From positions 923-64,922 of the forward strand of contig JBDRQD010000039.1 in NCBI GenBank assembly GCA_043826455.1: a DNA stretch of 64,000 nucleotides, written 5' to 3'. Source of the DNA: Candidatus Bathyarchaeota archaeon (GTDB taxonomy: Archaea > Thermoproteota > Bathyarchaeia > TCS64). The translations under genes were made by a program, and so were the position numbers. Positions 1,732 to 62,424 of this stretch are shown one piece after another. The notes beneath the pieces are model-generated. The model did not search any database and was not told the origin of the DNA. It was given only the letters and a program-made list of their open reading frames with translations. The number at the start of each line of letters is the position of its first letter. Position 1 is the first letter of the stretch.

Positions 1732-1787
1732 GGCGGGCCCTCGTTAGTGTTATCTAACCGTGTGGACAGGATCGTTATCTGGTCGAG

Positions 1788-2909
1788 TTGGCGCCAGTAA
1801 TCAACGAGTATTACCCGGGCTTGGAGAAGGTGCCCTGGATTAAGCTCGGGAACTTCCCTTCAAGGGTCGAGAGGCTTGAGGAGATGGGAAGGGCTCACGG
1901 CTTCACAGAGCTTTACATCAAGCGGGATGACTGCTGCCACACAGTCTACGGCGGAAACAAGGTCCGGAAGCTTGAGTACGTCCTGGCGGACGCCAAGTCC
2001 AAGAACAGGAGACTGCTCATCACGGTGGGCGCCACAGGCTCCAACCAGGTGCTCGCCACGGGCATCCACGGCGGCGGACAAGGGTTCAGGGTAATGGGCC
2101 TGATGTTCCACCAGCCCAACGCGGAGTACCTGAGAAGGAACCTGCTGCTAGACTGCCACTACGGCGTCGAGGTCAAGTACACAGGCAGCCTCGTGGGTGA
2201 GATATTTCTGCTGTGCTCCGAGTACCTGAAGGCTCTCATGAGGGGCGACAAACCCTACTACGTGCCCGGTGGCGCCAGCAGCCCAGTCGGGAACCTCGGC
2301 TTCGTGAACGCCGTGTATGAGTTGAACAGGCAGGTCGAGGAGGGCTTGGTGCCTGAGCCGGACTACATTGTCGCGGCCGCCGGCTCGCTGGGTACAACGG
2401 CGGGCCTGGAGCTCGGGTGCAGGCTTCTCAAACTCAAGACCAGGGTTCTGGCGGTGAGGGTGGGCCTGCCCTGGATGGTGAACCCCAGAGGATACGCCAA
2501 CATGGTGAGGAGCATCTGCAGCTACATGAGGAAACATGATCCCGGCGTCCCCGAGATCAGGTGCACAGAGAACGATGTCACCATGCTGACTGACTACCTC
2601 GGAGGAGGCTACGCCCACCTCACGGAGCTCGGGTTCAACACTGTGCTGGACATGGGCGAGCTTGAAGGCATACCCATGGACCCCACATACACAGGTAAGG
2701 CGCTGGGGGGCGGCCTAGACTGGCTGAAGAAGAACGGTGAACAGGATAAAGTAGTCTTGTTCTGGGACACCTACAACTCCGTGGACTTGTCGGGGCTCTG
2801 CGCCGATGTGGACTACAGAGCCTTACCCCGGGGCTTCCACAAGTACTTCACCGAGCCCACCCAGGAGGAGCTTATGGCCGAGGGGTCTCCCCCAGCCTCT
2901 CCAGATTGA
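1788..2909 (+). CDS. PLP-dependent ACC deaminase / D-cysteine desulfhydrase family enzyme
   Basis: YGGNKVRKLEY motif and family-typical length (373 aa). Confidence 0.75.
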   Translation: MAPVINEYYPGLEKVPWIKLGNFPSRVERLEEMGRAHGFTELYIKRDDCCHTVYGGNKVRKLEYVLADAKSKNRRLLITVGATGSNQVLATGIHGGGQGFRVMGLMFHQPNAEYLRRNLLLDCHYGVEVKYTGSLVGEIFLLCSEYLKALMRGDKPYYVPGGASSPVGNLGFVNAVYELNRQVEEGLVPEPDYIVAAAGSLGTTAGLELGCRLLKLKTRVLAVRVGLPWMVNPRGYANMVRSICSYMRKHDPGVPEIRCTENDVTMLTDYLGGGYAHLTELGFNTVLDMGELEGIPMDPTYTGKALGGGLDWLKKNGEQDKVVLFWDTYNSVDLSGLCADVDYRALPRGFHKYFTEPTQEELMAEGSPPASPD

Positions 2910-3051
2910 AGCTGACCCGACTCGTCCCGGAGTACCTTTTACTCCACGTTGTTCAAGTGGTCAAAAATATACTGGAAAGGCAACTGGAGGATATCCATTA
3001 AAATACTTTGAAACCGGATATTATACGGAGCCACAGCCGGGAGGACCACAA

Positions 3052-3498
3052 GTGAACCTGGACTCGCATGATCTCAAGATCCTCAGGGAGCTACAGAGGG
3101 ACGGCAGGGAGAGCTACGCCGAGCTCTCCAAGAAGACGGGGATACCCACCTCAACCCTCCACGACAAGGTGAAGCGCCTCATGGCCAGCGGCGTCATAGA
3201 GAGGTTCACCATCATAGTGGACGACGACAAGGCCGGATACAACAATATAGCCATCATCGGCGTCGAGACGGGGGCCCGGCAGTACAGGGAGGTGGCCGCG
3301 AAGCTGTGCGAGGTGCCTGAGGTGGTGGAGGTGTACGGCACCACGGCCGAGTTTGACCTCATGATCAAGGTCAGGTCCAGGAGCCGGGATGACCTCAGCA
3401 ACATCCTGGGCAGGATCAGGACCATTGAGGGGGTGGATGACATCTACGTGTCCAGTATCCTGGAGGTCTTCAAGGAGGAGCACGGCCTCCCCATATAA
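3052..3498 (+). CDS. Lrp/AsnC family transcriptional regulator
   Basis: LDSHDLKILRELQRDGRESYAELSKKTGIPTSTLHDKVKRL HTH plus C-terminal RAM-like domain. GTG at 3052 is preceded by GGGAGG. The longer track ORF (2806..) adds a low-complexity N-terminus. Confidence 0.85.
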   Translation: MNLDSHDLKILRELQRDGRESYAELSKKTGIPTSTLHDKVKRLMASGVIERFTIIVDDDKAGYNNIAIIGVETGARQYREVAAKLCEVPEVVEVYGTTAEFDLMIKVRSRSRDDLSNILGRIRTIEGVDDIYVSSILEVFKEEHGLPI

Positions 3499-3558
3499 TC
3501 CGCGGCTCCGGGGGAAACCCTTTTCCGCGGCTCACGACTACTTGATGAGACTCAAGGC

Positions 3559-4755
3559 ATGGATGCGGATGACAGGGTTTTCATCTTCCAGGTTCTGAGG
3601 TACGCGGCCGCCCTCTCATTCATGTTCATGGGCTACGGCCTCATTCAGCCGCTGCTGTCCCTTTACACGTCCAGCTTCGTGGGGGCCTCATACCTGCTGG
3701 TGGGGGCCCTGGTCTCCATCATCGGGCTGGTCAAGGCGGGCATGGGACCGGTGAGCGGCTTCATGTCGGACAGGTACGGCAGGAAGAGGATGGCCACCCT
3801 GGGGGCCCTCAGCGTTTCCCTGAGCATCCTCATAGTCACCTTGGCCCAGGCCGCGCCCCACCTGGTGGCCGCCTTCGTCTTGTACGGGCTAGGCCAGGCC
3901 TTCTTCTTCCTAGCCATCATGACAGGCATGGTGGAAGCCGCGGGCCCCGCCAGAAGGGCCCTGGTCCTCGGCCTCTACGAGGGGGTCAACAGCTTCTCCA
4001 TCCTGGCCGGGACCTGGCTCTCGGGGCCTCTGACGGCCAGCCTCGGCGTCCGTCCCGTGTTCGGGGTCGCGGCGGCTTTCAGCCTCGTCTCCTTCGCGGC
4101 GTGCGTGTTTCTGGTTAGGGAGACCGCGATGGTGGGCCAGGGCGCAAGGCTCCTGGAGCTGAGTGGCCTCAGGAGCATCCTGAGCCGGGAGTACGTGACG
4201 GCCATGTACAGCTCCTTCCTATTCATGTACACCCACAGCCTATACATGACGGTGATACCCCTCTACACAACCCTCACGGTCCGGATACCTGACGGGTTCC
4301 TGCCCGTCCTGTTCATGGGGCTCTCCGGGGCCACGGCGCTAGGCTCTCTCATAGCGGGCCCCGTGTCCGACCGCGTGGGTAGAAGAGTCCCCATAGCGGT
4401 GGGGATGGTCGTCGCCGCATCAAGCTTCGTGGCTCTCTTCCTCTCCGCGTCCCAGACGGTGCTGGTGGCCGCGAGCCTGGCCCTGGGGCTCGGCGCCGGG
4501 TTCTTCCACCCTGTGGCCAGCGCCGTGGTCGCGGACATATCAACCGTGGAGAACAGGGGTAAGGCCTTCGGTTTCTACAGGCTCACCCGGGACCTGGGGA
4601 CCTTCGCGGGGCCGGCGGCGGCAGGGGTGGTTACTAGCCTCCTCGGCGTGGGGGCTCTCTTCACCCTCAGCGCGGGCCTCATGGTCTTGGGCGCGTTCCT
4701 TGCCCTGTTCGTTATCAGGGAGACTCATCCGAAGGATTCAGGGGTCTCGGCTTGA
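3559..4755 (+). CDS. MFS transporter
   Basis: 398 aa, about 12 TM segments, DRYGRKR loop motif. Confidence 0.8.
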   Translation: MDADDRVFIFQVLRYAAALSFMFMGYGLIQPLLSLYTSSFVGASYLLVGALVSIIGLVKAGMGPVSGFMSDRYGRKRMATLGALSVSLSILIVTLAQAAPHLVAAFVLYGLGQAFFFLAIMTGMVEAAGPARRALVLGLYEGVNSFSILAGTWLSGPLTASLGVRPVFGVAAAFSLVSFAACVFLVRETAMVGQGARLLELSGLRSILSREYVTAMYSSFLFMYTHSLYMTVIPLYTTLTVRIPDGFLPVLFMGLSGATALGSLIAGPVSDRVGRRVPIAVGMVVAASSFVALFLSASQTVLVAASLALGLGAGFFHPVASAVVADISTVENRGKAFGFYRLTRDLGTFAGPAAAGVVTSLLGVGALFTLSAGLMVLGAFLALFVIRETHPKDSGVSA

Positions 4756-10998: not shown

Positions 10999-11040
10999 CG
11001 GCTCGGGGCTGTATTTCACCTCACATTTTTTTATCGTATC

Positions 11041-11092
11041 GAGGGGAAGATTTGAACTACCGACCTTTGGGTCATGAGCCTCACGGGCTACC
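11041..11092 (-). pseudogene. Decayed partial copy of tRNA-iMet (anticodon arm to 3' acceptor only)
   Basis: The reverse complement GGTAGCCCGTGAGGCTCATGACCCAAAGGTCGGTAGTTCAAATCTTCCCCTC aligns to the 3' two-thirds of the intact tRNA at 11920-11997. The stems now have mismatches and the 5' part is absent. Confidence 0.6.
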
Positions 11093-11203: not shown

Positions 11204-11677
11204 ATGAAGGCTCTAGTGATATACGACACCTTCTTCGGCAACACAGAGCAGGTGGCCCGCGCCATCAGCGACTCCCTGGGGGCGGAGAGCACCGCGATCC
11301 GCGTGGCCGACGCGAACCACGGGCAACTTGACGGCCTGGGCCTCCTGGTGGTGGGCTCACCCACGAGGGCGTTCAGGCCCACGAAGCCCATCAGCCAGTT
11401 CCTGGACAGGATCCCCCGGGACACCCTCAAGGGCATCAGCGTAGCCGCCTTCGACACCAGGATGTCCGAGGCCGAGCTAAACTCACCCTTGCTGGGCATA
11501 ATAGTAAAGCTATTCGGCTACGCGTCCAAGCCCATATCAGACAAACTTGTGAGGAAGGGAGGGGAGCAGGCAGCTCCCCCCGAAGGCTTCATCGTCGAAG
11601 GAACAGAAGGCCCGCTGAGGGACGGCGAACTCGAACGGGCCTGGGCCTGGGCCAAGCAGATCACCGAGACTCGGTGA
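11204..11677 (+). CDS. Flavodoxin
   Basis: MKALVIYDTFFGNTEQVA N-terminus and VVGSPT motif. Confidence 0.8.
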   Translation: MKALVIYDTFFGNTEQVARAISDSLGAESTAIRVADANHGQLDGLGLLVVGSPTRAFRPTKPISQFLDRIPRDTLKGISVAAFDTRMSEAELNSPLLGIIVKLFGYASKPISDKLVRKGGEQAAPPEGFIVEGTEGPLRDGELERAWAWAKQITETR

Positions 11678-11919
11678 CAGATCATAAACCTCTCACCCCC
11701 ATCCCCACCCCCTGCCTAACAGCCGCCTCAACAGCGCAGCCCCGAAAAACCACCCCCCATGATAACAAGACAAACAACGAGTACGGCGGACACCGCCGAC
11801 CACCACCACCGCCAACGAACCCCGAAAAAGCCCCCGATCAACAAAACAAGCCAGAACAATGTGAATCGTGGTGGCGGCGGTGGGACCCCCCCTCCCCCCC
11901 ACATGCACGCACAAACAAT
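11678..11919 (+). repeat. A+C-rich intergenic element, copy A
   Basis: Aligns by eye at roughly 80% over ~135 nt to the reverse complement of 60731-60875, and more loosely to 50190-50330. Confidence 0.7.
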
Positions 11920-11997
11920 TGGTAGCGGGGGGTAGATTTGAACTACCGACCTTGGGGTTATGAGCCCCACGGGCTAACCTGGCTGCCCTACCCCGCT
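11920..11997 (-). tRNA. Initiator tRNA-Met (CAT), CCA encoded
   Basis: Reverse complement AGCGGGGTAGGGCAGCCAGGTTAGCCCGTGGGGCTCATAACCCCAAGGTCGGTAGTTCAAATCTACCCCCCGCTACCA. It has A1:U72 and three G:C pairs closing the anticodon stem. Confidence 0.9.
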
Positions 11998-12059
11998 TCC
12001 TCTCAGATCACAACCCTATAGTCTTATAAACCTTCCAGTACCCCCCACAAACTGAAAAC

Positions 12060-12371
12060 ATGCCCCGCCCCAACACCAGACGCATCGCAGAACAACGCAT
12101 AGAGACCCTCTACCACAAGGCAAAGGAAACATACACCGTCAACCCGAACCTCAGCCGCAGATACACCCAGCTCCTCAGACGCATAGCCCAGCGCACCCGC
12201 ACCAAGCTACCCACACACATCAGACGAGGCATATGCAGAGGCTGCGGCACCGTCCTCATCCAGGGCCTCAACAGCCACACCAGGCTCAGGCAGCGCCGGG
12301 AACCCCACATAGCCACCACCTGCCACCTCTGCGGCCACACCCACAGAATACCCATGAGAGACCCACCGTGA
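12060..12371 (+). CDS. rnp4: RNase P protein component 4 (Rpp21/RNP4)
   Basis: Basic N-terminus plus zinc ribbon CRGCGTVLIQGLNSHTRLR...TCHLCGH. Confidence 0.8.
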   Translation: MPRPNTRRIAEQRIETLYHKAKETYTVNPNLSRRYTQLLRRIAQRTRTKLPTHIRRGICRGCGTVLIQGLNSHTRLRQRREPHIATTCHLCGHTHRIPMRDPP

Positions 12372-13396
12372 CCCTCACCCTCATCAGCGTCGGCCTCAGC
12401 AGCCACCTAGACCTCTCCCTCCGCGCCCTAGAAGCCGCCAAAGACGCCCACCACGTCTACGCCGAGACATACACCATGAAACTGGACACAACGATACAGG
12501 CACTCCAGGAAACCCTAGGCAGACCCGTCACACCCCTGGCCCGGGGAGGCCTGGAGGAAGAGGCACCCAGACTCCTGGAGGCCGCCGAGAACTCCAACGT
12601 CGCCATCCTGGTGGGCGGAGACGCCCTCGCCGCCACCACCCACATGAGCCTGCTAGTGGACGCAGCCAAGCGAAGCATCCCCGTCAGGGTGATCCACGGA
12701 AGCAGCGTCTTCACCGCCATAGCAGAGACAGGCCTAAGCCTATACAAGTTCGGCCGAACCGTCACGGTGCCCCTGCCCGAGAAGGGCCCCGTGGACACCG
12801 TCCTCAGGACCCTCAAGGAGAACGTGGAGCACGGCCTCCACACCCTCCTGCTCCTGGATCTGGACATCCCCGCGGACAGGTACCTCACCGTACCCGAGGC
12901 CATCACACGGCTGGAGGCGACCGGGGAGTTCCCCATGGACACCCTCATGGTGGCCGCAGCCAGGCTGGGCTCCAACACCCAACTCGTCCGGGCCGACACG
13001 GCCATGAAACTCAGAGACACCGACTGTGGGGACCCACCATACGCTCTGGTCGTTCCCGGTCAACTCCATTTCTTAGAGGAGGAGGCCTTGCAGGTGGTAG
13101 CGGGCTGCCCCCCCCGCCTACTGGAGGGCAGAAGGGTGCAGGGGGAGGTGGACCGTCTCGTGGAGAAGTACGCCACGGGGTGCCGGAGGGTGCTGGAAGC
13201 CCTTAAGGTGGCTGAGCTGCCAGCCGAGGTGACGGAAGAAGCGGTCGCCGGCCTCCTAGACCACGTGAGGCGCTACCTGGAGGACGCAGAGTACTACCGC
13301 GCGGACCAGAAGCCTGTGGCTCTCACCAGCGTCGCCTACGCCGAGGGCATCTTGGACGCCTTAAAGCTTTTAGGCATAGCCGACTTCCAGTGGTGA
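12368..13396 (+). CDS. dphB: Diphthine synthase with ~75-85 aa C-terminal extension
   Basis: Tetrapyrrole-methylase fold (LTLISVGL..., VAILVGGDALAATTH, YKFGRTVT). The GTG start overlaps the rnp4 TGA (GTGA). Confidence 0.85.
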   Translation: MTLTLISVGLSSHLDLSLRALEAAKDAHHVYAETYTMKLDTTIQALQETLGRPVTPLARGGLEEEAPRLLEAAENSNVAILVGGDALAATTHMSLLVDAAKRSIPVRVIHGSSVFTAIAETGLSLYKFGRTVTVPLPEKGPVDTVLRTLKENVEHGLHTLLLLDLDIPADRYLTVPEAITRLEATGEFPMDTLMVAAARLGSNTQLVRADTAMKLRDTDCGDPPYALVVPGQLHFLEEEALQVVAGCPPRLLEGRRVQGEVDRLVEKYATGCRRVLEALKVAELPAEVTEEAVAGLLDHVRRYLEDAEYYRADQKPVALTSVAYAEGILDALKLLGIADFQW

Positions 13397-33594: not shown

Positions 33595-33672
33595 GGGCTC
33601 GTAGTCTAGCCAGGATAGGATTCTGGCCTGCGGAGCCGGAGGTCGTGGGTTCGAATCCCACCGAGCCCGCCA
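33595..33672 (+). tRNA. tRNA-Arg (GCG), CCA encoded
   Basis: GGGCTCGTAGTCTAGCCAGGATAGGATTCTGGCCTGCGGAGCCGGAGGTCGTGGGTTCGAATCCCACCGAGCCCGCCA folds as a cloverleaf with anticodon loop CTGCGGA. Confidence 0.9.
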
Positions 33673-34089: not shown

Positions 34090-34425
34090 AACCGTGTTTT
34101 CTGGGCTCCAGAGTCAAAGAGGAAGCACCTCAACGAGTAAAAGCATGAGGCAAAAGATGGAATTTTTTTCCGCCTTATCCCGGCTGGCACGGGATAAGCC
34201 ACCTAACTAACGATATGCCCCTCGCACCAGCACCACAGCCCCAGAGAGGGGGGAGGGGGTAGAGCAAAATGAACCTGAAACAGGTGCCCCAGGCCAAAAG
34301 GAGGCTGGGAAACACGCCTTTGCCGTCCTATTCTATGCAGAAACGCCGTCCATTCCATACAGAGACACGGTCATTTCAGCGCATCAGGCACGGTACTGAT
34401 GTGCAAAAAAAGTAGGGGGTATCGT
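34090..34425 (+). repeat. Inverted-repeat partner L (~340 bp)
   Basis: Aligns by eye at roughly 70-75%, with indels, to the reverse complement of 43055-43410. Confidence 0.65.
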
Positions 34426-43054: not shown

Positions 43055-43410
43055 AATGATACCCCCCTACGTTTTTTCACATCAGGCTCTCCATCACGCC
43101 TTGCTTTATGTGTTGAATGGGCCGCGTTTTTGTATGGAATGGATAGCGTTTTTGCGTAGATTGGGATCGAAAAGGCGGGTTTCCTGGCCTCCTTTTGGCG
43201 TGGGGCGGCCGTTTCCGGTTTTTCTTGCTCTACCCCCCTCCCCCCTCTCTGGGGCTGTGGTGCTGGCGTGGTGAGTGTAACGTTTTCCGGGAGTGGCTTA
43301 TCCCATGCCGGACGGGATAAGGCGGAAAAAAAATCCATCTTATATTACATGTTTTTGCTTCGGTGAGGCTCCTCCTCATCCTCGGCTCAGGAGCTCAGGA
43401 AAACACTGTT
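43055..43410 (-). repeat. Inverted-repeat partner R (~355 bp)
   Basis: The reverse complement aligns to 34090-34425, including the CCGCCTTATCCCG...GGGATAAGCC hairpin and CAGCACCACAGCCCCAGAGAGGGGGGAGGGGG. Confidence 0.65.
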
Positions 43411-49441: not shown

Positions 49442-50005
49442 ATGGTCGCTCAGCCTAATCTTGAGACTGAAAGACTGATCCTGAGACCATTCAAGCCAAG
49501 CGACGCAGAACAAGTACAGAGACTAGCCGGATCAGAAGAGGTAGCCGAGACCACGAACCTACCCCACCCCTACACCGTGGAGATGGCAGAGGAATGGATC
49601 AAGACCCACGAACCGGCGTACAGGATGGGCTGAGGAGCCGCCTATGCCATCACGCTGAAGAACACCGGCGAACTCATCGGAGCGATCAGCCTCATGGACA
49701 TCACCCAGCCCAGCAACCACGCCCGCATCGGGTTCTGGGTGGGCGTACCCTACTGGAACAAGGGGTACTGCACGGAGGCCGGGAAAGCCGTCCTGGAGTA
49801 CGGCTTCCAAGTGAGACACCTCAACCGCATCCACACAGGCTACATGATCAGCAACCACGCCTCAGGCCGCGTACTGGAGAAGCTCGGCATGGTGTACGAG
49901 GGAACCCAGAGACAGCACATCACCCGACTAGGAAAACACGAAGACCTGATCCTCGTGGGACTACTGAGATCAGAGTGGATCAAAAACCAGGACAAGGCAC
50001 CGTGA
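49442..50005 (+). pseudogene. GNAT (RimJ/RimL-like) N-acetyltransferase interrupted by an in-frame TGA at 49631-49633
   Basis: Track ORFs 49442..49633 and 49694..50005 are in the same frame. The read-through sequence is ...HEPAYRMG*GAAYAITLKNTGELIGAISL... Confidence 0.7.
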
Positions 50006-50332
50006 CGCGGGCCCCCCACATTCTGCCGAGAACCGGCAACACCCACTGACCCATCAAAAAAGGCTCAATGCATCCACTGCCCACCCCTCCGCCACCATAC
50101 ACCAACCCCGAACAAACATTAACCAAATCCACGAACAACCAAACAAGAAAAAACCCAAAACAAAACAGAAAAACAAACCCACACCCCAACCCACGACAGA
50201 CACCACCACAAACCGCCACCATAAAACAACCCCAAAAAACACCCGAACACCAAAACAAACCAAAAAACAGCAAACCATGACAACGACGACAATCCCCCCG
50301 GGGGGGTATGCACACACACAACAAAACAAAGG
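50006..50332 (+). repeat. A+C-rich intergenic element, copy C (most extreme)
   Basis: 50101-50280 contain only 10 G and 5 T in 180 nt by hand count. The 3' end aligns to copy A (…ATGCACRCACAACAA followed by a tRNA 3' end). Confidence 0.6.
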
Positions 50333-50415
50333 TGCGGGGGGAGGGATTCGAACCCTCGAAAGCCTAAGCTATAGGATCTTGAGTCCCACCCCTTTGGCCA
50401 CTTGGGAACCCCCGC
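50333..50415 (-). tRNA. tRNA-Leu (CAA) with long variable arm
   Basis: Reverse complement GCGGGGGTTCCCAAGTGGCCAAAGGGGTGGGACTCAAGATCCTATAGCTTAGGCTTTCGAGGGTTCGAATCCCTCCCCCCGCA. Confidence 0.9.
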
Positions 50416-50493
50416 CCAGAACAAAACAAACACCACCAACATAAAACCGTTCCCCACAAACCCAAATACCACAACAACCAAACCCATACCAAG

Positions 50494-51195
50494 ATGAGGA
50501 CCACCATAAGCCTCGGCGGCAGCCTACTCACCGGCGACAAAAACGACCCCACACTCACCCTAACCCCCAAACCCTACCGAGCCTACGCCACAGTCCTAAG
50601 GCAGCTCCACGACCTCGGCCACCAGATCATGGTTGTATGCGGAGGAGGAAAACCCGCACGCCACTACATCCAGGTAGCCAAAAACCTGGGCGCGTCACGA
50701 TCCATCCAGGACATGCTGGGCGTCAAGGCCACCCACATAAACGCCCTCCTCCTCACAGCCGCCCTAGGCGACACAGCCGACCAGACCAGAATATACACCC
50801 GGGCAACGGAGCTAAGATACCGCCAACCCGACAAGATATGGGTGGGCGGAGGCTATAAGCCCAAAAGCAGCACCGACTACCGGGCCATCCTCCTCGCCCG
50901 CGCCCTCGGCTCAGACGCCGTCATCAACGCCACCGACGTCCCAGGCGTCTACGACTCCAACCCCCACACCAACCCCAAAGCCAGAAAGCTCGACACGGCA
51001 ACCCACGCCCAGCTAGAGAGAATCATCAAAGAAAGCACCAGGCAGGCCCCAGGCGAGTACGGCCTCTTCGACCTCAAAGCAGTCAAACTAGCCGCCAGGA
51101 TCAACATGCCCCTCATCTTCATAGACGGCAGAGACCCCGAGGAGCTGAGACGAGCCGTCGAAGGCGGCCACAGCGGCACAGTAGTGAAGACTTAG
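50494..51195 (+). CDS. pyrH: UMP kinase (archaeal type)
   Basis: ISLGGSLL...VVCGGGKPARHY...GGYKPKSSTD pattern, 233 aa. Confidence 0.9.
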   Translation: MRTTISLGGSLLTGDKNDPTLTLTPKPYRAYATVLRQLHDLGHQIMVVCGGGKPARHYIQVAKNLGASRSIQDMLGVKATHINALLLTAALGDTADQTRIYTRATELRYRQPDKIWVGGGYKPKSSTDYRAILLARALGSDAVINATDVPGVYDSNPHTNPKARKLDTATHAQLERIIKESTRQAPGEYGLFDLKAVKLAARINMPLIFIDGRDPEELRRAVEGGHSGTVVKT

Positions 51196-51234
51196 CCCTC
51201 TCATGTTTTAATCCCTGAAAACCAACAATAACCC

Positions 51235-52692
51235 ATGACAGGTCACAGAGTAGTCATCGGCTCGATAGCCCACGAGACCAACACCTTCAGCACCGTAAAG
51301 CTCAGACTACCCGACTTCAACCCCCTCTACGGAGACGACATCACCAAAGTCCTCAAAGGCACCAGAAGCGGCATAGGCGGCTTCATAGACGTCCTCGAAA
51401 AAGAGGGCGTAGAAATGGTCTTCACCATATCAGCCCACGCCACCCCCGCTGGCCCAGTCAACCACACAGACTACAGGCGCATGGTGGACACCATCTTAGA
51501 AGGCGTCAAAGATGAGAAGGTGGACGGGGTCCTCCTAGCCCTCCACGGAGCCATGGTCGCCGAGAACGTACCGGAGGCCGAGGGCGTCCTCCTAGAAGAA
51601 GTACGCAAACAAGTAGGCAAGAAGCCCATCATCATCACCCTGGACCTCCACGGACTAATCTCCACCAAGATCATAGACAACTGCGACGCCGTCTACGGCT
51701 ACGACACCAACCCCCACATAGACATGTACGAGCGAGGCGTCGAAGCCGCCGAGACCATGGTAAAAACCCTCAGAGGCGAACTCAAACCCGTCGTCGCCCA
51801 CAAGAAGCTACGAATGCTGCCCCCGACGATCAACCAGAGAACCACCGAGGGCCCCATGGTGGAGCTCCTTAAAGAAGCACGGAAGATGGAGAAGAAGCCG
51901 GGCGTCCTCAACGTATGCATCTTCCCCGCCTTCCCTTACGCCGACGTGCAGCGCGCAGGCTCAGCAGTGGTGGCGGTCACCGACGGCGACAAGAAGCTGG
52001 CTCAGAGCCTCTGCGACCAGCTGGGCGAGAAGATGTACGCCATGCGCCAGCAGTTCCTGAAGCAACTCACACCCATAAAGGAAGCAGTGAAACGAGCCGT
52101 CGATGCACCGGAGAGACCTATAGTGTTGGCTGACGTGGCGGACAACCCAGGCGGAGGAGCCCCAGGGGACGGCACAGAGATACTCCGGGAGCTCATGAGG
52201 GTGAAGGCTAAGAGCGTGAGCGTCGCCATCATCAAGGATCCCGAGGCGGTAGCCGAGGCCATAAAAGTCGGCGTCAAGGGCACCCTCCGAATGCCCATCG
52301 GGGCTAAGACGGACACCTTCCACGGCAAACCCGTTAAGGTGGAGGGCACGGTGCGCACCATCACGGACGGCAGGTTCATCCACAAGGCCATGGCCGTGGG
52401 CGTTCCCGCCGACGTGGGCCGGACAGCCGTCATCGACGTGGACGGCATAGAGATCATCCTCACCGAGAAGAGCCACGCCCCCAACGACCCAGAGATATAC
52501 AGGCGCAACGGCATCGAGCCCACCGACAAGAAGATACTGGTGCTGAAGAGCCGCGGCCACTTCAGGGCAGCCTACGAGCCCTTCAGTAAGGAGATCATAG
52601 AGGTGGACGCCCCAGGCCTCACTTCCCCCAACCTGAGCTGGTTCAAGTATACCAACATACCGCGCCCCATCTGGCCCTTCGACCCAGTCTAG
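51235..52692 (+). CDS. MlrC-like (M81) metallopeptidase
   Basis: N-terminal IGSIAHETNTFS and family-typical length (485 aa). Confidence 0.8.
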   Translation: MTGHRVVIGSIAHETNTFSTVKLRLPDFNPLYGDDITKVLKGTRSGIGGFIDVLEKEGVEMVFTISAHATPAGPVNHTDYRRMVDTILEGVKDEKVDGVLLALHGAMVAENVPEAEGVLLEEVRKQVGKKPIIITLDLHGLISTKIIDNCDAVYGYDTNPHIDMYERGVEAAETMVKTLRGELKPVVAHKKLRMLPPTINQRTTEGPMVELLKEARKMEKKPGVLNVCIFPAFPYADVQRAGSAVVAVTDGDKKLAQSLCDQLGEKMYAMRQQFLKQLTPIKEAVKRAVDAPERPIVLADVADNPGGGAPGDGTEILRELMRVKAKSVSVAIIKDPEAVAEAIKVGVKGTLRMPIGAKTDTFHGKPVKVEGTVRTITDGRFIHKAMAVGVPADVGRTAVIDVDGIEIILTEKSHAPNDPEIYRRNGIEPTDKKILVLKSRGHFRAAYEPFSKEIIEVDAPGLTSPNLSWFKYTNIPRPIWPFDPV

Positions 52693-52841
52693 CCGAGGCT
52701 ACAGTAAAAGGGGGTGGCGTCCACCACATTCACGGGCTGGCTCATAGAGAACCAGGACACCGGAGTAATACTCCTCCTGTCCCTGAGATTGCTTGTTCCC
52801 ACGTGCCTAATAGCGGTCGCCCTGTGAAGACGGGCTGCTAG

Positions 52842-57928: not shown

Positions 57929-58672
57929 GTGTTGAAGAACAGGTGGGTTCTGGTAGGCCTCGCCTTAATCCTCGGGGGGGTCGTCTTCATCGACTACATT
58001 GCACAGCTCCTCTACCCGTCCGTGGATCTGGGGGCCCTCAGCGTCCCTGACACACTCAGCGGAACACACACCTACAACTTCTATAAGGATACCGCCTTCG
58101 TCGGCACCCACACCTACAGCGTCGCCAAGGTCCCCGGAGCCCAGGGCACAATCTTCGCCATGAGCTCCGGGACCTTCATCACGTTTGAGGGTAAGTCCCT
58201 CGCCCTTGAGGGCTTGTACCGGTTCAACTCAGGTTTCCGGCCCGTAAGTTACGGGCTCAACGTCACTGAGGGTGGCGAGGTCACTTACTTTGTGTGCGAC
58301 TTCAAGCCTGGGGAGGTTACCACCACAGTCAGGTTCCAGGGGGAGACAGCTGACGTGGTAACCGATATCGAGGAAGGCACGCTGCTGGTTGAGAACTCCA
58401 TGCCTGGCTACTGGGAAATTCTGCTCCAGTCCGCGTCCTTGGAGAGGGGGAGACGGCACACCCTCGGCCTGTTCATTCCTCAGGCCGCCAGGGTGTTCCA
58501 GGTGACGCTTTTCGTGGAGAATGACCTTGAGCAAGTCCGGGTGGAGGATAAGACACTGGAATGCATGGTTGTGAAGGCTTCTGAGCTGGGTCTAGCTTTC
58601 TACGTTCACCAAGGCGAGTTGGTCCAGTACAGGGACGAGGCTCAGGGCGTCGCCATGAATAAGGTGTCTTGA
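57929..58672 (+). CDS. Hypothetical membrane-anchored protein (247 aa)
   Basis: N-terminal TM helix followed by a beta-rich sequence. No recognisable family. Confidence 0.5.
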   Translation: MLKNRWVLVGLALILGGVVFIDYIAQLLYPSVDLGALSVPDTLSGTHTYNFYKDTAFVGTHTYSVAKVPGAQGTIFAMSSGTFITFEGKSLALEGLYRFNSGFRPVSYGLNVTEGGEVTYFVCDFKPGEVTTTVRFQGETADVVTDIEEGTLLVENSMPGYWEILLQSASLERGRRHTLGLFIPQAARVFQVTLFVENDLEQVRVEDKTLECMVVKASELGLAFYVHQGELVQYRDEAQGVAMNKVS

Positions 58673-58699
58673 AGCCTGAGGCGCAGCTTTAAGTATGGT

Positions 58700-59632
58700 T
58701 TAGGAAGCGCCCATGGCTAGGGCCATGGCGCCGTATAGAACCACGTCCTCTCCCAGGGGGGTTATCATGATCCTGGGCAGCCTGTTGATGGCGTGCTTAG
58801 CCATGTAGTGCTCTATGGGCATCAGTATCAGGTCAGGGTTGTTGAGGGCTATGCTTCCGCCTACGGTTATCAGCCCGGGGTCATAGGCGTTCACTATGTC
58901 TGCGAAGCCGATGGCGTTGACCTTGCCTATCTCTTCCACCACCATGAGGGCGTGGTCGTCTCCCTGCTTGGCTGCGTCGAAGATCATCTTGACCGTGATG
59001 TTCTTGGGGTTTCCTCCGCAGAGGTCGCTGAGGAGGCTGCTCCTCCACTTCGTGCCCCTGAGAATGGTTCTGGCGTAGTAGGGGATGTTTTTTCCTCCGC
59101 TGAAGGCCTCCCAGTGGCCCGGGCCGCCGCAGCCGCACAGTATTCTGCTGTTGGGGTGTATGGTGAGGTGGCCTATCTCCACGGCGTTGCCGTCCTTACC
59201 CATGAGGAGATGGCCGTCCACTATAGCTCCGCCGCCCAGCCCTGTGCTCATGGTGACGTAGAAGAGGTTCTCGGTGTCCTGGCCTGCGCCGAACACGTGT
59301 TCCCCCAGGACGCCGGCGCTGCAGTCGTTGACTATCTTGATGGGGACGTCGTACATTGTTTTCAGGGGCTCTGTGATAGGTATCTCCTTGTAGGGGTAGT
59401 TGGGGGTGTTGGTGATCATTCCCCTTGTGTAGTCGATGGGCCCTATGGAGCCGATGCCGATGGCCACGGGGTTCTCCTCCAGTTCGCTTATCAACCTTAT
59501 GATCTGGAGTGGTATGCCTTCGGGGCCGCCGGCTTTGTCGGTTTCCTCTGAGGCCTTTCTTTTTAACCCGGATTCGTCGCCGCACGCGATGCGGATATAC
59601 GTGGCTCCGATATCCACGGCTACGTAGGACAA
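58700..59632 (-). CDS. ROK-family sugar kinase
   Basis: VAVDIGATYIR N-terminus and CGCGGPGHWE zinc motif. Confidence 0.8.
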   Translation of the reverse strand: MSYVAVDIGATYIRIACGDESGLKRKASEETDKAGGPEGIPLQIIRLISELEENPVAIGIGSIGPIDYTRGMITNTPNYPYKEIPITEPLKTMYDVPIKIVNDCSAGVLGEHVFGAGQDTENLFYVTMSTGLGGGAIVDGHLLMGKDGNAVEIGHLTIHPNSRILCGCGGPGHWEAFSGGKNIPYYARTILRGTKWRSSLLSDLCGGNPKNITVKMIFDAAKQGDDHALMVVEEIGKVNAIGFADIVNAYDPGLITVGGSIALNNPDLILMPIEHYMAKHAINRLPRIMITPLGEDVVLYGAMALAMGAS

Positions 59633-59668
59633 GGCAGTTCAAAGAAAATGGTTGAGGTAGATAAATGG

Positions 59669-60691
59669 TTACCGCTTGGCCGCGATACTGGTCTTGAGGC
59701 TGCCTATCTTCTCTATCCAGGCTTCGAGCTTGTCGCCGGGCTTCAGGAACAGCTTGGGGTCTGTCTTGCCGTCCACCATGGGGGTCTGGTCCATGGCTGT
59801 GCCGCTGCAGGTTCCTCCGCAGATTATGTCTCCGGGGTAGAAGACCATGTCTCTGGTGAGGTGGCTGAGCCACCAGTCGTAGCCTCTGATGATGCTCTCC
59901 ATTGTGCCGTCCTGGCGTAGCTCTCCGTTGACCCACTGCTTAATCCGCAGCTTGTAGGGGTCACCGATCTCGTCGGCCGTCACGATGCAGGGGCCCATGG
60001 GGGCGCATCCGTCGAAGTTCTTGGCGTAGAACAGGCCGTCCGGTCCGGGTCTCCTGCCTCCGTCTCTGATGCTGAGGTCGTTGACGATGGTGTACCCGTA
60101 GATGATGCTCACGGCGTCTTTCTCGGCCACGTCCTTGCACTGTTTGCCGATGACGGCTGCTAGCTCCACCTCGTAGTCGAGGCGCTGGGTCCTGCTTGGG
60201 TAGGGGGTCTCCCCGCCTGGGCCTATGACGCATCCGGCGTGTTTCCAGAAGCCCCAGGCCGGGTACTCACCCTTCTCTACCTGTTTCTTGAGGTCCTCGA
60301 TGGTGGTCGTGGTGTCGCCGCGTAGGGTCTTGGCTGCGTCCAGGCTGTGGTCGTAGAAGTTGGCTCCGGCCATGGCTATCTTGGTGGCTTTGCTGGGCAG
60401 GGGGGCGTGGAGTTTGACCTCCTCACCTGAGTAGTGGAGCTTCTCGCCTCTGGGCCCTTGCTTGTTGCCTGCCTTGACGTGGGCCACGGCTTTCTTTGCT
60501 TCGTCCAGCCCCTTCTTGCCTTCCTGGATGAAGGCCAGGAGGTCTGCGGGTACTGTGGCGTCCGCCTTGGCTTGTGGCCGGGGTTCTCCTCGGCTCTTGA
60601 GGTAGGCTGCGTAGGCGTGGTTGAGGTCTGTGACTGTTCCGTCTTCCTGGAGGGCTCCGAGCCTCCCGGTGTTGTATGTGACTAGTTTCAT
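59669..60691 (-). CDS. Fumarylacetoacetate hydrolase family protein
   Basis: C-terminal FAH domain (YEVELAAVIG, GDIICGGTCSG). Confidence 0.85.
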   Translation of the reverse strand: MKLVTYNTGRLGALQEDGTVTDLNHAYAAYLKSRGEPRPQAKADATVPADLLAFIQEGKKGLDEAKKAVAHVKAGNKQGPRGEKLHYSGEEVKLHAPLPSKATKIAMAGANFYDHSLDAAKTLRGDTTTTIEDLKKQVEKGEYPAWGFWKHAGCVIGPGGETPYPSRTQRLDYEVELAAVIGKQCKDVAEKDAVSIIYGYTIVNDLSIRDGGRRPGPDGLFYAKNFDGCAPMGPCIVTADEIGDPYKLRIKQWVNGELRQDGTMESIIRGYDWWLSHLTRDMVFYPGDIICGGTCSGTAMDQTPMVDGKTDPKLFLKPGDKLEAWIEKIGSLKTSIAAKR

Positions 60692-60963
60692 GGATTGATG
60701 ATGGTGGGTTTTGTGTTTAAAGACATTGGGGTGGTTTGTGTGTGTGCACGTGGGGGGGGGGGAGGGGGGGTCCCATCACCGCCACCGCGGTTCCCGGTTT
60801 TCAGGCTTGTTTACTTGATCGGAGGCTTTTTCAGGGTTTCTAGGCGGTGGTGGTGGTGGGTGATGTCCGCCGCGGGGCGTCAGTTGTTCAACAATGGCTT
60901 GACTGCTGTGTGGAAGCGTGTGATTTGAGGCGGGGCTGTTTTTCTGGAAGCTGTCAAGGCTGA
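60692..60963 (-). repeat. A+C-rich intergenic element, copy B (inverted; G+T-rich as read on the + strand)
   Basis: The reverse complement of 60731-60875 aligns to 11781-11915. Weaker similarity extends across the whole intergenic region. Confidence 0.65.
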
Positions 60964-62199
60964 TCATTTGCCTGGCGGGTTAGGCGTGGTGACGGTCATC
61001 TCTGCCTCAAGATTCTCGGGGACCCTGGAGAGTATCAGGAGGCCGGCGAGCACCAGGAGCGAGGAGAGGGCCGCGCTGGTCAGTAGGCTGGCGGCGTCAC
61101 CCAGGTAGCCTCCCAGGAGGGGCCCGAAGGCCCAGGACAGCCCGTTGATGAACGAGAAGTAGCCGGCGTAGACGCCTCTTCTCCCGGGGATGAGGTTCAT
61201 CTGCCACGCGAACCACGCCGAGTTGATGAAGGCCCAGTAGGCTCCGCTGAGGAGGTACACCGGCACTAGGTAGGTTACTTCGGGGGCCAACGTGAAGACC
61301 AGGGGGTGCATGGCCGCCAGGAGGAAGCCTATCAGCATCACTCTTTTAGGCCCATCCCTGTCCACGATCACTCCGAGGGGCGGAGTCCCAAGGAGTCTGA
61401 TCAGGAAGGCCACGCTGTTCAGGGCCCCTATCTGGGGCTTTGAAGCGTTCAGCACGTTGACTAGGTACAGGGTGAGTATGGGGCCGAACATGGCGATGCC
61501 GAAGCCTCTGACGCTGATGCCGACGCACCACCTGGTGTAGGGGCCGCCTTCTCTGCTAACCTTGGGCAGCTCCCTCAACCCGGTCTTCAGCTCTTGGAAG
61601 GCCATCTTGATGAGGTCTACGTAGCCGATGTCCTTTTCCTGGGGGGTCGAGAGCCCGAGCCTTATCAACCCGGCTATGATAAGGTTGAGGACGGTGTAGC
61701 TCAGGAAGATGTACTTGTAGCCTATAGATGGGATGAAAATCCCTGCGAGGAAGCTTCCGACGATGTTTCCCGCGAACCCCATGGGGTTGTAGATGCCCAT
61801 GAATCGGGCTCTTCTCGAAGGCTCCAGGACCTCCGCGAATCTCACAGTGATGATGACCTCGGATATGGAGCCTAGTAAGGCCTGGGCTGAGGTGGCTAGG
61901 ATCACCTGCCAAGGATTTGTTGATAGTATCACAGGGACGCTGAATATCGCTGTGAACAGGAACCCGGTGGACACCATCTTCCAGGTGGTGCCGATCCTGT
62001 CCCCTAACCGGCCCCACGCGAGCTGCATGAAGGTGGAGGCTAGACCGGGGACGAAGGCAAGGAGACCCACATGGAAGGCTGTTCCTCCCAGGTCTAGTAG
62101 GAACACTGAGAGGAAGGCCCAAACCCCGTTTACTATCCCATGGATGAAGCTGTAGCTCAGAAGAATCGATGAGTATGTGCCGTTTCTTTCCTTGAACAA
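60964..62199 (-). CDS. MFS transporter
   Basis: 411 aa multi-TM protein. Confidence 0.8.
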   Translation of the reverse strand: MFKERNGTYSSILLSYSFIHGIVNGVWAFLSVFLLDLGGTAFHVGLLAFVPGLASTFMQLAWGRLGDRIGTTWKMVSTGFLFTAIFSVPVILSTNPWQVILATSAQALLGSISEVIITVRFAEVLEPSRRARFMGIYNPMGFAGNIVGSFLAGIFIPSIGYKYIFLSYTVLNLIIAGLIRLGLSTPQEKDIGYVDLIKMAFQELKTGLRELPKVSREGGPYTRWCVGISVRGFGIAMFGPILTLYLVNVLNASKPQIGALNSVAFLIRLLGTPPLGVIVDRDGPKRVMLIGFLLAAMHPLVFTLAPEVTYLVPVYLLSGAYWAFINSAWFAWQMNLIPGRRGVYAGYFSFINGLSWAFGPLLGGYLGDAASLLTSAALSSLLVLAGLLILSRVPENLEAEMTVTTPNPPGK

Positions 62200-62424
62200 G
62201 CCTGGTTATACGCCTTCAAATATATTTATTGGCTTTGATGAGCGAAGACAGTTTATTAAGCATTATTGACCAGTAATTTAACAATACAAATACAATTCGC
62301 AGCTTTTTGAAGCGCATATATTAACATCATTATTTCATGGGTATGTACTCTACTTAGAAAGGATAGAAGGAATTAAATCCTCTAATTGATCTGCTTCTCC
62401 CATTCCTGAAAGGAGACAAGAGTC

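Follow-up and report, generated by a model that had tools for sequence, protein, structure and literature searches.

Around copies of a conserved element in Bathyarchaeia, the DNA strand that carries the C-run of the element is enriched in A+C and the opposite strand, carrying the G-run, in G+T. The window (the whole stretch of 64,000 nt that was analysed) contains three zones with such a skew. The third of them, which is G+T-rich on the plus strand (zone 3), is the longer flank of a peak of strand asymmetry centred on element copy B. The skew is a local mutational footprint and does not result from selection on genes or RNAs. The best overall explanation, to which we assign a probability of about one half, is a footprint anchored on the element that arises by exposure of the G-run strand, with a quadruplex/hairpin fold as the likely trigger. 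Local composition skews in prokaryotes are usually taken as signals of replication or transcription; here, in an uncultured archaeal class, the polarity of the skew is set by a small conserved DNA element and not by gene or replichore. The features of the window that are relevant for the following are:

11787..11918, plus strand: element copy A (covariance model R1: 124 bits), in zone 1 (~11250-12900, A+C-rich on the plus strand)
11920-11997, minus strand: tRNA-Met, abuts copy A
50197..50319, plus strand: element copy C, degenerate (R1: 18 bits), in zone 2 (~49750-52700)
50331-50415, minus strand: tRNA-Leu, abuts copy C
58250..60963: zone 3, G+T-rich on the plus and A+C-rich on the minus strand, with a sharp edge at the element and decay toward 58250-58700
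58700..59632, minus strand: ROK family gene (Pfam PF00480), A+C at third codon positions (AC3).72, distal part of zone 3
59669..60691, minus strand: fumarylacetoacetate hydrolase family gene (FAH; Pfam PF01557), within zone 3
60692..60963: intergenic region between MFS transporter gene and FAH, holds copy B; 272 nt, versus 105 nt in the element-free ortholog locus L002
60717..60722, minus strand: TTTAAA box, ~30 nt before the FAH start codon and outside the element, with the same sequence in L002, L004 and L006; the probable FAH promoter
60734..60869, minus strand (C-rich strand): element copy B (R1: 121 bits, E 8.5e-31, model positions 1-132 of 132)
60752..60770, plus strand: G11AG7 run, fits the G-quadruplex motif GGG-N-GGG-N-GGG-N-GGG; C-run/i-motif on the minus strand
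60772..60788: G-run-proximal hairpin arm, forms a 17-bp stem with 60844-60860 in the DNA fold
60789..60843, minus strand: conserved loop, from alignments
60844..60860: hairpin arm distal to the G-run, from DNA fold and covariation
60964..62199, minus strand: MFS transporter gene (Pfam PF07690), upstream side of copy B, weak shift only (AC3.65)

G+T makes up 60.1% of the plus strand at 58700-60963 (A.134, C.265, G.326, T.275). Windows of the same size over the 64 kb have a mean G+T of.501 (sd.047); only 0.24% of them reach.601 and all of these overlap 58700-60963, which is thus the most extreme such stretch of the window. A hand count of 43 G+T in the 60 nt at 60301-60360, given in a preliminary description of the region, proved exact, and only 0.7% of all 60-nt windows have values as high as this. 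The gradient described there, with the strongest bias at 60300-60963 and a weaker one toward 58700, was recovered as well: G+T amounts to.675 (z = 3.1) in the former stretch and falls from.710 in the intergenic region to.597 in the FAH gene and.576 in the ROK gene. Zone 3 stops sharply at ~60990 and fades gradually near 58250-58700. It had been called a mirror image next to an inverted element and, indeed, copy B lies on the minus strand, and zones 1 and 2 are A+C-rich on the plus strand with peaks of.70 near 12000 and.78 near 50000. The skew is located mostly at third codon positions, with a coding-strand AC3 of.72-.73 in FAH and ROK versus ~.51-.57 in ordinary genes of the window, but the non-coding flanks are skewed as well as the genes. 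Since the skewed sequences of zone 2 and zone 3 were recovered in independent assemblies (L001 and L006, respectively), they are not an assembly artefact. An exact sequence look-up with the FAH protein gave no match.

The element is non-coding, has a length of ~130 nt and comprises a covarying hairpin of 13-17 bp, a conserved 60-nt loop, a C7TC7 run and ACGTGCACGCAC; the G7AG7 opposite the C7TC7 run is a minimal G-quadruplex motif. In the window, a search with R1 revealed exactly three copies, and each skew zone has its summit at one of them; among other contigs of Bathyarchaeia, 32 non-redundant copies were detected. The hairpin has 13 aligned pairs, which are 81% paired over 17 copies, with double compensatory changes in 7 pairs and a covariation score that beats 499 of 500 shuffles; an alignment slid by +/-3 still pairs (74-75%), the arms being triplet repeats. 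As to which strand folds, 23 cells have wobble pairs on the C-strand only and 23 on the G-strand only. The C5-8TC7 run is kept in all intact copies. Such a run, followed by ACGYGCACRCAC at the 3' end of the C-rich strand, was used as a defining trait of the family; copy B shares this trait and reads C7TC11 ACGTGCACACAC on the minus strand. Its G-run has the form (G3+ N1-7)x4 that defines the quadruplex motif, contains a match to CCCCCTCCCCC at 60758-60768 and is predicted to form a three-layer quadruplex (ViennaRNA, gquad option). The loop consensus on the C-strand is AAGGACCCTGAAAAAGCCTCCGATCAAYAAAACAAGCCTGAAAACGTGGAA (alignment of 31 copies), and T4-T5 tracts are found in the loop on the G-rich strand. 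The arms of copies A and B (11784-11917 and 60739-60872) are 81% complementary, and the arm of copy C differs from the consensus by G>A and T>C changes. The site of copy B is also occupied in L006, a 94%-identical relative, and in the relative L151 an intact element is found where the degenerate copy C sits. Elements have been retained at orthologous loci since speciation (window/L006, L016/L028, window/L151), and copies inside one MAG diverge by 20-30%, with compensatory changes. A tRNA gene adjoins only ~1/4 of the copies and none is present in zone 3; tRNA genes are therefore not required, in agreement with the preliminary description.

Full-text searches of the literature revealed no account of the element or of an element-anchored skew in archaea. 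Rfam 15 detected only tRNAs at gathering score in the window and nothing meaningful at E<=10 over 60600-61000. A conserved promoter for a transcription unit on the C-rich strand was not found upstream of the element; AT-rich boxes occur at inconsistent positions and several copies are directly preceded by coding sequence. Archaeal origin recognition boxes (ORB) consist of a dyad (TTCCA-N-TGGAA) plus a G-string and are clustered round an AT-rich unwinding element beside orc1/cdc6. The element was rejected as an ORB since it contains only the half-site-like GTGGAAAC, its copies are single and dispersed, and neither an AT-rich region nor orc1/cdc6 is located near them. Like bacterial REP/BIME sequences, it is multi-copy, structured, non-coding and intergenic, often between convergent genes. 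However, REPs are imperfect palindromes of 20-40 nt with near-identical copies that are mobilised by RAYT transposases, whereas the element has at least ~130 nt, the 60-nt conserved loop, a G/C-run and old copies at orthologous loci, and diverges by 20-30% within one MAG; it was therefore not assigned to the REP/BIME-RAYT family, for which we know of no skew footprint. The boundary of a tRNA-targeted integrative element was rejected, too: a partial tRNA-Met repeat (11036-11090 versus 11922-11976) brackets an 886-bp segment with copy A, but copy B is accompanied by neither tRNA nor repeat. The FAH-ROK block is syntenic in relatives.

The preliminary description had proposed to search for further copies and to test statistically whether the polarity of the skew follows the orientation of the element; this was done with 25 independent loci from other Bathyarchaeia MAGs and metagenomes. 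Third-position A+C was raised on the C-rich strand in 24 of these 25 loci (<=800 nt downstream; mean +0.12; sign test p=1.5e-6), and for copy B the shift was +.179. At distances of more than 2-3 kb, no shift was observed (13/27 positive, mean -.008). Polarity thus follows the orientation of the element. Copies without skew or with the opposite polarity, which the description had named as evidence against the rule, were sought among the same 25 loci; four had little or no shift, one being slightly negative and three near zero. Raw A+C at +100..+1100 exceeded.5 in 19/22 loci, and upstream in 12/21. The peak has the same sign on either side of the element; the enrichment has its maximum in the first 300 nt and declines over a distance of ~0.5-1 kb upstream and of 1-2.5 kb downstream.

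The bias of the adjacent FAH and ROK genes is real, but its connection to their coding strand, also part of the preliminary description, is a coincidence of this window. Pfam-verified genes that lie next to an element on the opposite strand (PTH2, aaRS, aminotransferase, Lrp) have G+T-rich coding strands with an AC3 of.22-.40. Pooled third positions amounted to.69 for same-strand and.65 for opposite-strand genes at 0-300 nt from the element, and to.56 and.465, respectively, at 3-5 kb. Since opposite-strand genes are shifted likewise, the skew cannot be ascribed to codon usage, selection on mRNA or sense transcription. The AC3 of FAH is.72 in the window and.70 in L006, both with element, versus.55 in the syntenic loci L002 and L003, in which MFS and FAH are separated by a spacer of 105 nt without element. 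L151, which shares one metagenome with L003 and is assumed to stem from the same organism, has the skew at the zone-2 site alongside its intact element. Further, the skew gradient is present inside single genes and affects synonymous sites of conserved syntenic housekeeping genes. The skew is thus found at synonymous and non-coding sites and in both gene orientations and is absent from an ortholog locus without the element, demonstrating a local mutational footprint anchored on the element. A G/C run alone was rejected as the cause of such zones, since no comparable gene-spanning skew accompanies the G6AG5/C6TC6 runs of the inverted repeats at 34136-34393 and 43099-43359. The segment of 33.7-43.4 kb was also considered as a mobile island and rejected on gene content.

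On the branch leading to the window and L006, FAH experienced 18 G>A and 16 G>C versus 2 A>G and 8 C>G changes. Differences between the window and L006 in the first 1.1 kb comprise 33 A/G versus 11 C/T and 16 A/C versus 1 G/T; at 1.1-2.6 kb the imbalance is much weaker (A/G 53 versus C/T 43; A/C 23 versus G/T 9). Five near-identical contig pairs had few differences, which are unpolarised. The substitutions on the C-rich strand are G>A, G>C and C>A, a pattern that fits what repeated single-stranded exposure of the G-run strand would leave behind. We infer that, around the element, the G-run strand would repeatedly be left single-stranded, or the C-run strand be removed and resynthesised. In the exposed G-run strand, cytosines could deaminate (C>T; C>G after uracil removal), adenines deaminate (A>G) and guanines become oxidised (G>T), and copying of the damaged strand would fix G>A, G>C, T>C and C>A on the C-run strand. 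Since G>C and G>A changes are equally frequent, simple deamination does not account for the whole pattern. The most likely trigger, and the least certain step, would be folding of the G7AG7 quadruplex and the adjacent hairpin on the G-run strand. The fold may halt synthesis or pairing of the complementary strand and give rise to a gap of variable length 5' of the quadruplex, a geometry that matches the longer flank; trimming of the stalled 3' end could produce the shorter upstream flank.

Several observations speak against this explanation. First, one-way forks, as suggested by the baseline skew, would put the G-run on the leading-strand template at copies A and C and on the lagging-strand template at copy B, but all three zones are kilobase-sized despite the differing template, which is not as a pure leading-strand block predicts. 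Second, the peak is two-sided and not strictly 5' of the G-run. Third, a comparison by eye of G-run length (C5 to C8) with skew amplitude among the copies revealed no relation. The skewed zones of L004 and L150, for which no element was recognised, the G6AG5 repeat of the window and the four loci with little or no shift also count against it. G-quadruplex replication barriers in dog-1/FANCJ- or Pif1-deficient cells are similar in that a G-run in the template blocks polarly and leaves a persistent gap 5' on the G-rich strand. However, they yield small deletions in helicase mutants, whereas the element is surrounded by an evolutionary composition footprint in wild-type genomes, and the dependence on replication direction expected of such barriers is not evident. 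The hairpin OL of vertebrate mitochondrial DNA is another parallel, with an A+C versus G+T skew, a gradient with distance and a sharp step at the hairpin. The mitochondrial gradient is attributed to deamination during single-stranded time; it is genome-wide and bound to one replication mode, whereas the peaks at the element are numerous, local and two-sided, have a size of 1-3 kb, occur in either orientation and belong to a cellular chromosome.

If the G-run strand is indeed exposed, wild genomes would provide evolutionary evidence, in the form of the footprint, that archaeal DNA metabolism is perturbed in vivo by a quadruplex/hairpin motif, and the footprint would offer a means to find such sites and gauge their strength from sequence only. 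The process would also be a source of locally faster, directional protein evolution; an example may be UMP kinase, whose identity is 80-91% inside the skewed lineage and drops to <=65% outside. More tentatively, the element could be a dedicated, oriented, cis-acting site that programs recurrent exposure of one strand, either as the archaeal equivalent of Chi or as an intrinsic G-quadruplex site of pausing or gap formation. We regard this as possible but not as probable. In that case, its activity would suffice to rewrite 1-3 kb of neighbouring sequence over evolution, including the amino-acid make-up of housekeeping proteins, of which UMP kinase is one, and each copy would be a readable record of past exposure of the G-run strand in living cells.

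The exposed strand could also result from a co-transcriptional R-loop (G-loop), an explanation that we consider unlikely overall. Transcripts in the sense of the G-run would pause or terminate at the element, where a G4 in the non-template strand is followed by T-tracts, the RNA would stay on the C-run strand and the displaced G-run strand would be damaged. T4-T5 tracts are an archaeal termination signal, and the loop carries them on the G-rich strand; most loci have, on the G-run strand, a gene or tRNA whose end lies within ~10-140 nt of the G-run. Zones end approximately at the end of the next convergent G-strand gene, at +1.9 to +2.8 kb (window and loci with co-oriented downstream genes), so read-through antisense transcription could span the zone. 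The polarity agrees with the classical transcription-associated deamination of the non-template strand, and independence of replication direction would suit copies of both orientations. However, ordinary genes do not have G+T-rich coding strands (baseline coding-strand AC3 ~.535-.56) and transcription alone is therefore insufficient. Moreover, the skew climbs toward the element, the reverse of a read-through decay, and reaches farther in loci with downstream genes on the C-run strand than in loci with downstream genes on the G-run strand, and in both L016 and L028 a T5-T6 tract of PTH2 itself precedes the element. The GC-skewed, G4-prone R-loop regions of eukaryotes (CpG-island promoters, terminators, immunoglobulin switch regions) resemble the zones in their kilobase-sized asymmetry of G versus C near G-clusters, in the G-rich strand thought to be displaced and deaminated, and in their dependence on orientation. 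Unlike the element, they are set by transcription start or end; the element has no conserved promoter and its footprint ignores the orientation of neighbouring genes. It is also a discrete, conserved archaeal hairpin element of 130 nt, and A versus T is skewed, too.

Somewhat less probable still is strand-specific nicking or polar end-processing in the manner of Chi, by which a hypothetical nuclease or helicase-nuclease would read the oriented hairpin and G-rich motif, and kilobases of the C-run strand would be lost by excision or resection and then be replaced, with the exposed G-run strand as template. If excision proceeded both ways from a nick, the peak would be two-sided and have a single sign, independently of transcription or replication direction, and the conserved loop and covarying stems would suit recognition of a folded strand by a protein. 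The shape of the footprint is compatible with a Chi-like effect, for which composition is a proxy: an oriented G-rich motif has an effect on its 5' side that decays over kilobases, and a weaker one on the other side; Chi, too, leads to a polar, kilobase-sized single-stranded tail 5' on the motif strand. The resemblance to bacterial Chi motifs is short and could be chance. Further, Chi has 5-8 nt, is unstructured and acts via RecBCD/AddAB, whereas the element is structured and has ~130 nt. To our knowledge, neither RecBCD/AddAB nor Chi occurs in archaea, which counts against such processing, and we are not aware of a compositional footprint at Chi sites. A simple two-ended break followed by resection was rejected since the sign should then differ between the two sides, and the peak has one sign.

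It is improbable that the element is a passenger, which inserts or survives in DNA that is already asymmetric, or belongs to a longer mobile unit with skewed flanks. Some skewed zones were seen where no element could be detected: one lies upstream of FAH in L004, and L150 has a PyrH gene with an AC3 of.91 but lacks the element in the 71 nt that were available. In the distant L152, PyrH is mildly A+C-rich and the element is absent, and the bracketed segment around copy A would also suit a mobile unit. On the other hand, the skew spans conserved syntenic housekeeping genes at synonymous sites and is graded inside single genes, orthologous copies persist since speciation, recent substitutions beside copy B are still strand-biased, and the divergence of copies within one MAG argues against recent mobility.

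Gene-level causes (codon usage or expression, selection for unstructured A+C-rich mRNA, asymmetry from sense transcription) are very improbable: every gene of the three zones in the window is encoded on the A+C-rich strand, but the non-coding flanks are skewed, opposite-strand genes are biased oppositely on their own coding strand, the element-free FAH ortholog is unskewed, and the polarity is the reverse of classical sense-transcription deamination. Least probable of all is a chromosome-scale replication skew, or an origin or terminus in the window; a keto/amino skew is the classical replication signature, but there are three local peaks of two polarities within 50 kb around which the sign of the baseline is unchanged, and no origin features were seen. 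Outside the zones, the plus strand has a slight excess of G+T to the left as well as to the right of copies C and B; since two polarities occur 10 kb apart on an unchanged baseline, the zones are not a leading/lagging skew, in agreement with the preliminary description, and a peak of the same sign on both sides of the element is unlike an origin or terminus. The baseline skew suggests that forks cross the window in one direction. Convergence of forks between copies C and B, which might have reconciled the zones with a leading-strand block, was rejected since the baseline third-position skew has the same sign on both sides (three genes right of B). Skew zones of this kind distort predictions of codon usage, horizontal transfer and skew-based origins, and the element also flags mis-binned contigs.

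Inverted copies of the ~130-nt non-coding element at 11784-11917 and 60739-60872 (81% complementary) were detected by a repeat finder, and exact-pattern scans, one of a genome collection and one of a metagenome collection, recovered the same element in many Bathyarchaeia MAGs and metagenome contigs; homologs of FAH and the UMP kinase (PyrH) also place the window in Bathyarchaeia. An alignment and a covariance model were built from 17 copies, and the model found exactly three in the window:

11787-11918, + strand, copy A (124 bits)
50197-50319, + strand, copy C (18 bits), itself degraded through G>A and T>C substitutions
60734-60869, - strand, copy B (121 bits)

The preliminary description had proposed a search for more copies with such a model, and this search returned 32 non-redundant copies beyond the window. 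On the C-rich strand the element comprises a GC-rich arm, a well conserved loop of ~60 nt (AAGGACCCTGAAAAAGCCTCCGATCAAYAAAACAAGCCTGAAAACGTGGAA), the complementary arm, a C5-8TC7 run and ACGYGCACRCAC. The stem covaries (13 pairs, 81% of cells paired, 7 pairs with double changes, above 499/500 shuffles), indicating from the alignment that it is preserved through compensatory changes. The arms are triplet repeats and therefore also pair after a 3-nt slide, and wobble pairs favour neither strand (23 on each). G7AG7 on the opposite strand conforms to the minimal G-quadruplex motif, and folding with quadruplexes allowed predicts one there. Rfam gave no match to the element, no conserved promoter was found upstream of its copies, and membership tests for a described RNA family, REP/BIME, ORB or a tRNA-integration boundary were negative.

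Copies inside one MAG diverge by 20-30%, and copies at orthologous loci are retained across species (the window and locus L006; L016 and L028, with flanking genes 83% identical; the window and L151). These observations mark the family as an old, maintained one without recent mobility. The element sits in intergenic DNA, frequently between convergent genes. Only about a quarter of the copies come after the 3' terminus of a tRNA gene on the opposite strand, so that tRNA genes, as had been claimed, are not required. The archaeal element was also found in bins labelled bacterial (L008, L016, L020 and L024 in DATKWY01, 'Ca. Desulfaltia'; L011 in DATKWN01, Krumholzibacteriaceae); L016 also carries archaeal-type genes with orthologs in a Bathyarchaeia MAG. 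These contigs are probably mis-binned.

In zone 3, the stretch next to copy B, the + strand contains 60.1% G+T over 58700-60963, a value that ranks first among equally long intervals of the window (top 0.24%). The earlier count of 43/60 at 60301-60360 was exact, and the reported rise of the bias toward copy B was borne out, since G+T increased from.576 in ROK over.597 in FAH to.710 in the 272-nt spacer (60692-60963). The mirror zones around copies A and C have + strand A+C peaks at ~12.0 kb (.70) and ~50.0 kb (.78), compared to a window mean of.499 (sd.058). The bias lies mostly at third codon positions, with non-coding flanks biased likewise; the A+C fraction at third positions of the coding strand (AC3) is.72-.73 in FAH and ROK and.82 in the UMP kinase, and ~.51-.57 in other genes. 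Since the same skewed sequences were found again in independent public assemblies (L001, L006) and the genes are intact with normal Pfam matches, the skew is biological and not an artefact.

Three further features of the window were noticed. A GNAT acetyltransferase gene on the upstream border of zone 2 (49500-50005) appears as 63-aa and 103-aa pieces in public gene calls (identical Logan contig) and is probably a pseudogene within the most heavily skewed DNA. The UMP kinase (50494-51195) shares 80-91% identity with its homologs in one group of relatives, with an abrupt fall to <=65% in all others, which fits a skew-driven replacement toward Thr, Pro, His, Asn, Gln and Lys in the lineage of the window. 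A sharp AT-rich dip (GC.33-.40) at 62100-62400, between the divergent MFS and pyruvate:ferredoxin oxidoreductase gamma/delta genes, is probably their common promoter region.

For 30 loci outside the window, oriented by the C-rich strand, A+C was determined at third codon positions only.

A+C on the element strand by distance from the element
-400 to 0 nt: same-strand genes.65, opposite-strand genes.58
0-300 nt: same-strand.69, opposite-strand.65
300-600 nt: same-strand.67, opposite-strand.56
600-1000 nt: same-strand.64, opposite-strand.52
1000-1500 nt: same-strand.62, opposite-strand.48
3000-5000 nt: same-strand.56, opposite-strand.465
>2 kb upstream: same-strand.52, opposite-strand.41

Within <=800 nt downstream the predicted shift was found in 24/25 loci (mean +.12, p=1.5e-6), and distant sequence had none (13/27 loci positive, mean -.008); the window copies gave +.115 (A), +.179 (B) and +.283 (C). 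The skew is confirmed, and its interpretation in the preliminary description, that polarity follows the orientation of the element, is supported and extends beyond the window. The described link of the bias to the coding strand did not hold: the bias goes with the strand of the element and, read on their own coding strands, is reversed in opposite-strand genes. The latter are real genes (peptidyl-tRNA hydrolase PTH2, class II aaRS, aminotransferase, Lrp regulator) with G+T-rich coding strands (AC3.22-.40). Because the bias does not track the coding strand, codon usage, mRNA-level selection and sense-transcription asymmetry are ruled out. The footprint forms a peak with the same sign to either side of the element; it is steeper upstream, where it fades by ~1 kb, and reaches 1-2.5 kb downstream. 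A flip of sign across the site would be expected of an origin, of a terminus and of a two-ended break with resection, and these are ruled out as well. The earlier argument against a replication-strand effect also stood, since the + strand baseline is weakly G+T-rich on either side of copies C and B and hence no replichore switch lies between the two polarities. What the data demonstrate is a mutational footprint that is specific to one strand and anchored on the element.

Relatives share the MFS-FAH-ROK block in synteny. L006 (FAH 94% identical) has the end of the element at the same position, the same skew and a FAH AC3 of.70. In L002/L003 (80% identical) the spacer has 105 nt, element and skew are both absent, and FAH has an A+C of.51 and an AC3 of.55; its four-fold sites contain G.33 and T.12 there versus G.17 and T.02 in the window. 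L151, from the same metagenome as L003, carries an intact element at the tRNA-Leu/PyrH site, and the skew is found there. The link is not absolute. L004 has an A+C-rich zone (1500-4000, GC skew ~-0.2) over a beta-lactamase-family gene and the start of FAH in which the covariance model detected no copy; perhaps an element was present and has disappeared, or the skew arises otherwise. No stronger bias was seen than that of the L150 UMP kinase (1-927; AC3.91, G3.09), and the 71 nt between tRNA-Leu and the contig end are ordinary sequence without the element. Considering these loci and the eroded copy C, zones may outlive their element, or the element is possibly a passenger of skewed DNA.

On the branch leading to the window and L006, FAH acquired 18 G>A and 16 G>C changes versus 2 A>G and 8 C>G, and ROK behaved alike. 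In the 1.1 kb nearest the element, the window differs from L006 by A/G 33 vs C/T 11 and A/C 16 vs G/T 1; at 1.1-2.6 kb transitions are nearer balance (A/G 53 vs C/T 43) but transversions are still uneven (A/C 23 vs G/T 9). This unevenness, greatest near the element, indicates that the process was recently active and is strongest beside it. Read on the G-run strand, the changes are C>T, C>G, A>G and G>T. This set corresponds to the damage expected in exposed single-stranded DNA: deamination of cytosine and adenine, excision of uracil with subsequent bypass, and guanine oxidation.

A G-run strand that is recurrently single-stranded around the element, or a C-run strand that is recurrently resynthesised, would account for the footprint. 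Ranked first as a possible trigger is a quadruplex or hairpin that would stop synthesis on the G-run template and leave a gap to its 5' side; geometry and the sharp-then-graded profile agree, but such a block implies a dependence on fork direction of which the window shows none. A co-transcriptional G-loop, ranked second, is favoured by T-tracts on the G-rich strand, by genes and tRNAs terminating at the G-run and by zones stopping near the next convergent gene, but ordinary genes lack such bias and the gradient climbs toward the element, not away from it. The third candidate, nicking of one strand or polar processing of the Chi type, would agree with the two-sided peak of one sign and with independence from replication and transcription. 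Where downstream genes are co-oriented with the element (zones 1-3, L026, L027, L029), the skew fades near the end of the next convergent gene, at +1.9 to +2.8 kb, a hint that convergent transcription may bound the zones.

By geometry and inferred chemistry, the likest systems are eukaryotic G4/R-loop GC-skew regions, the mitochondrial gradient anchored at the OL hairpin, Chi sites and G4 replication barriers. Strand asymmetry through single-strand damage is known; not known before is a conserved, oriented, multi-copy archaeal element with its own kilobase-scale footprint. Literature searches brought up neither the element nor an element-anchored skew in archaea; a survey of archaeal G-quadruplexes mentions Bathyarchaeota for motif density only (PMC7565180).

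Other repeats were also observed. The 3' 55 nt of tRNA-Met are directly repeated (11036-11090 / 11922-11976, 89% identical) around an 886-bp segment with a flavodoxin gene (11204-11677) and copy A; they look like att repeats of an integration remnant. Inverted repeats of ~260 nt (34136-34393 / 43099-43359, 77-84% complementary), with their own C6TC5-type run and small hairpin, enclose 8.7 kb by tRNA-Arg (33595-33672). A mobile island was rejected because the 8.7 kb hold housekeeping genes (luciferase-like oxidoreductase, Lrp, eRF1, class I aaRS); the segment may be an inversion substrate. Finally, an unrelated repeat, ...GATATTTCTCCCCCTCCCCCCC...(CA)n, has two copies (L010 5308-5337, L017 5097-5120) on CBDBZY010000018.1 (813 kb, GC ~.46). 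Directly downstream of each copy the sequence is very G+T-rich, with A+C in the first kilobase at.33 and.30 (L010) and in the first 500 nt at.32 (L017, where the following 500 nt have an ordinary.54); possibly this is an independent instance of local skew, in a bacterium.
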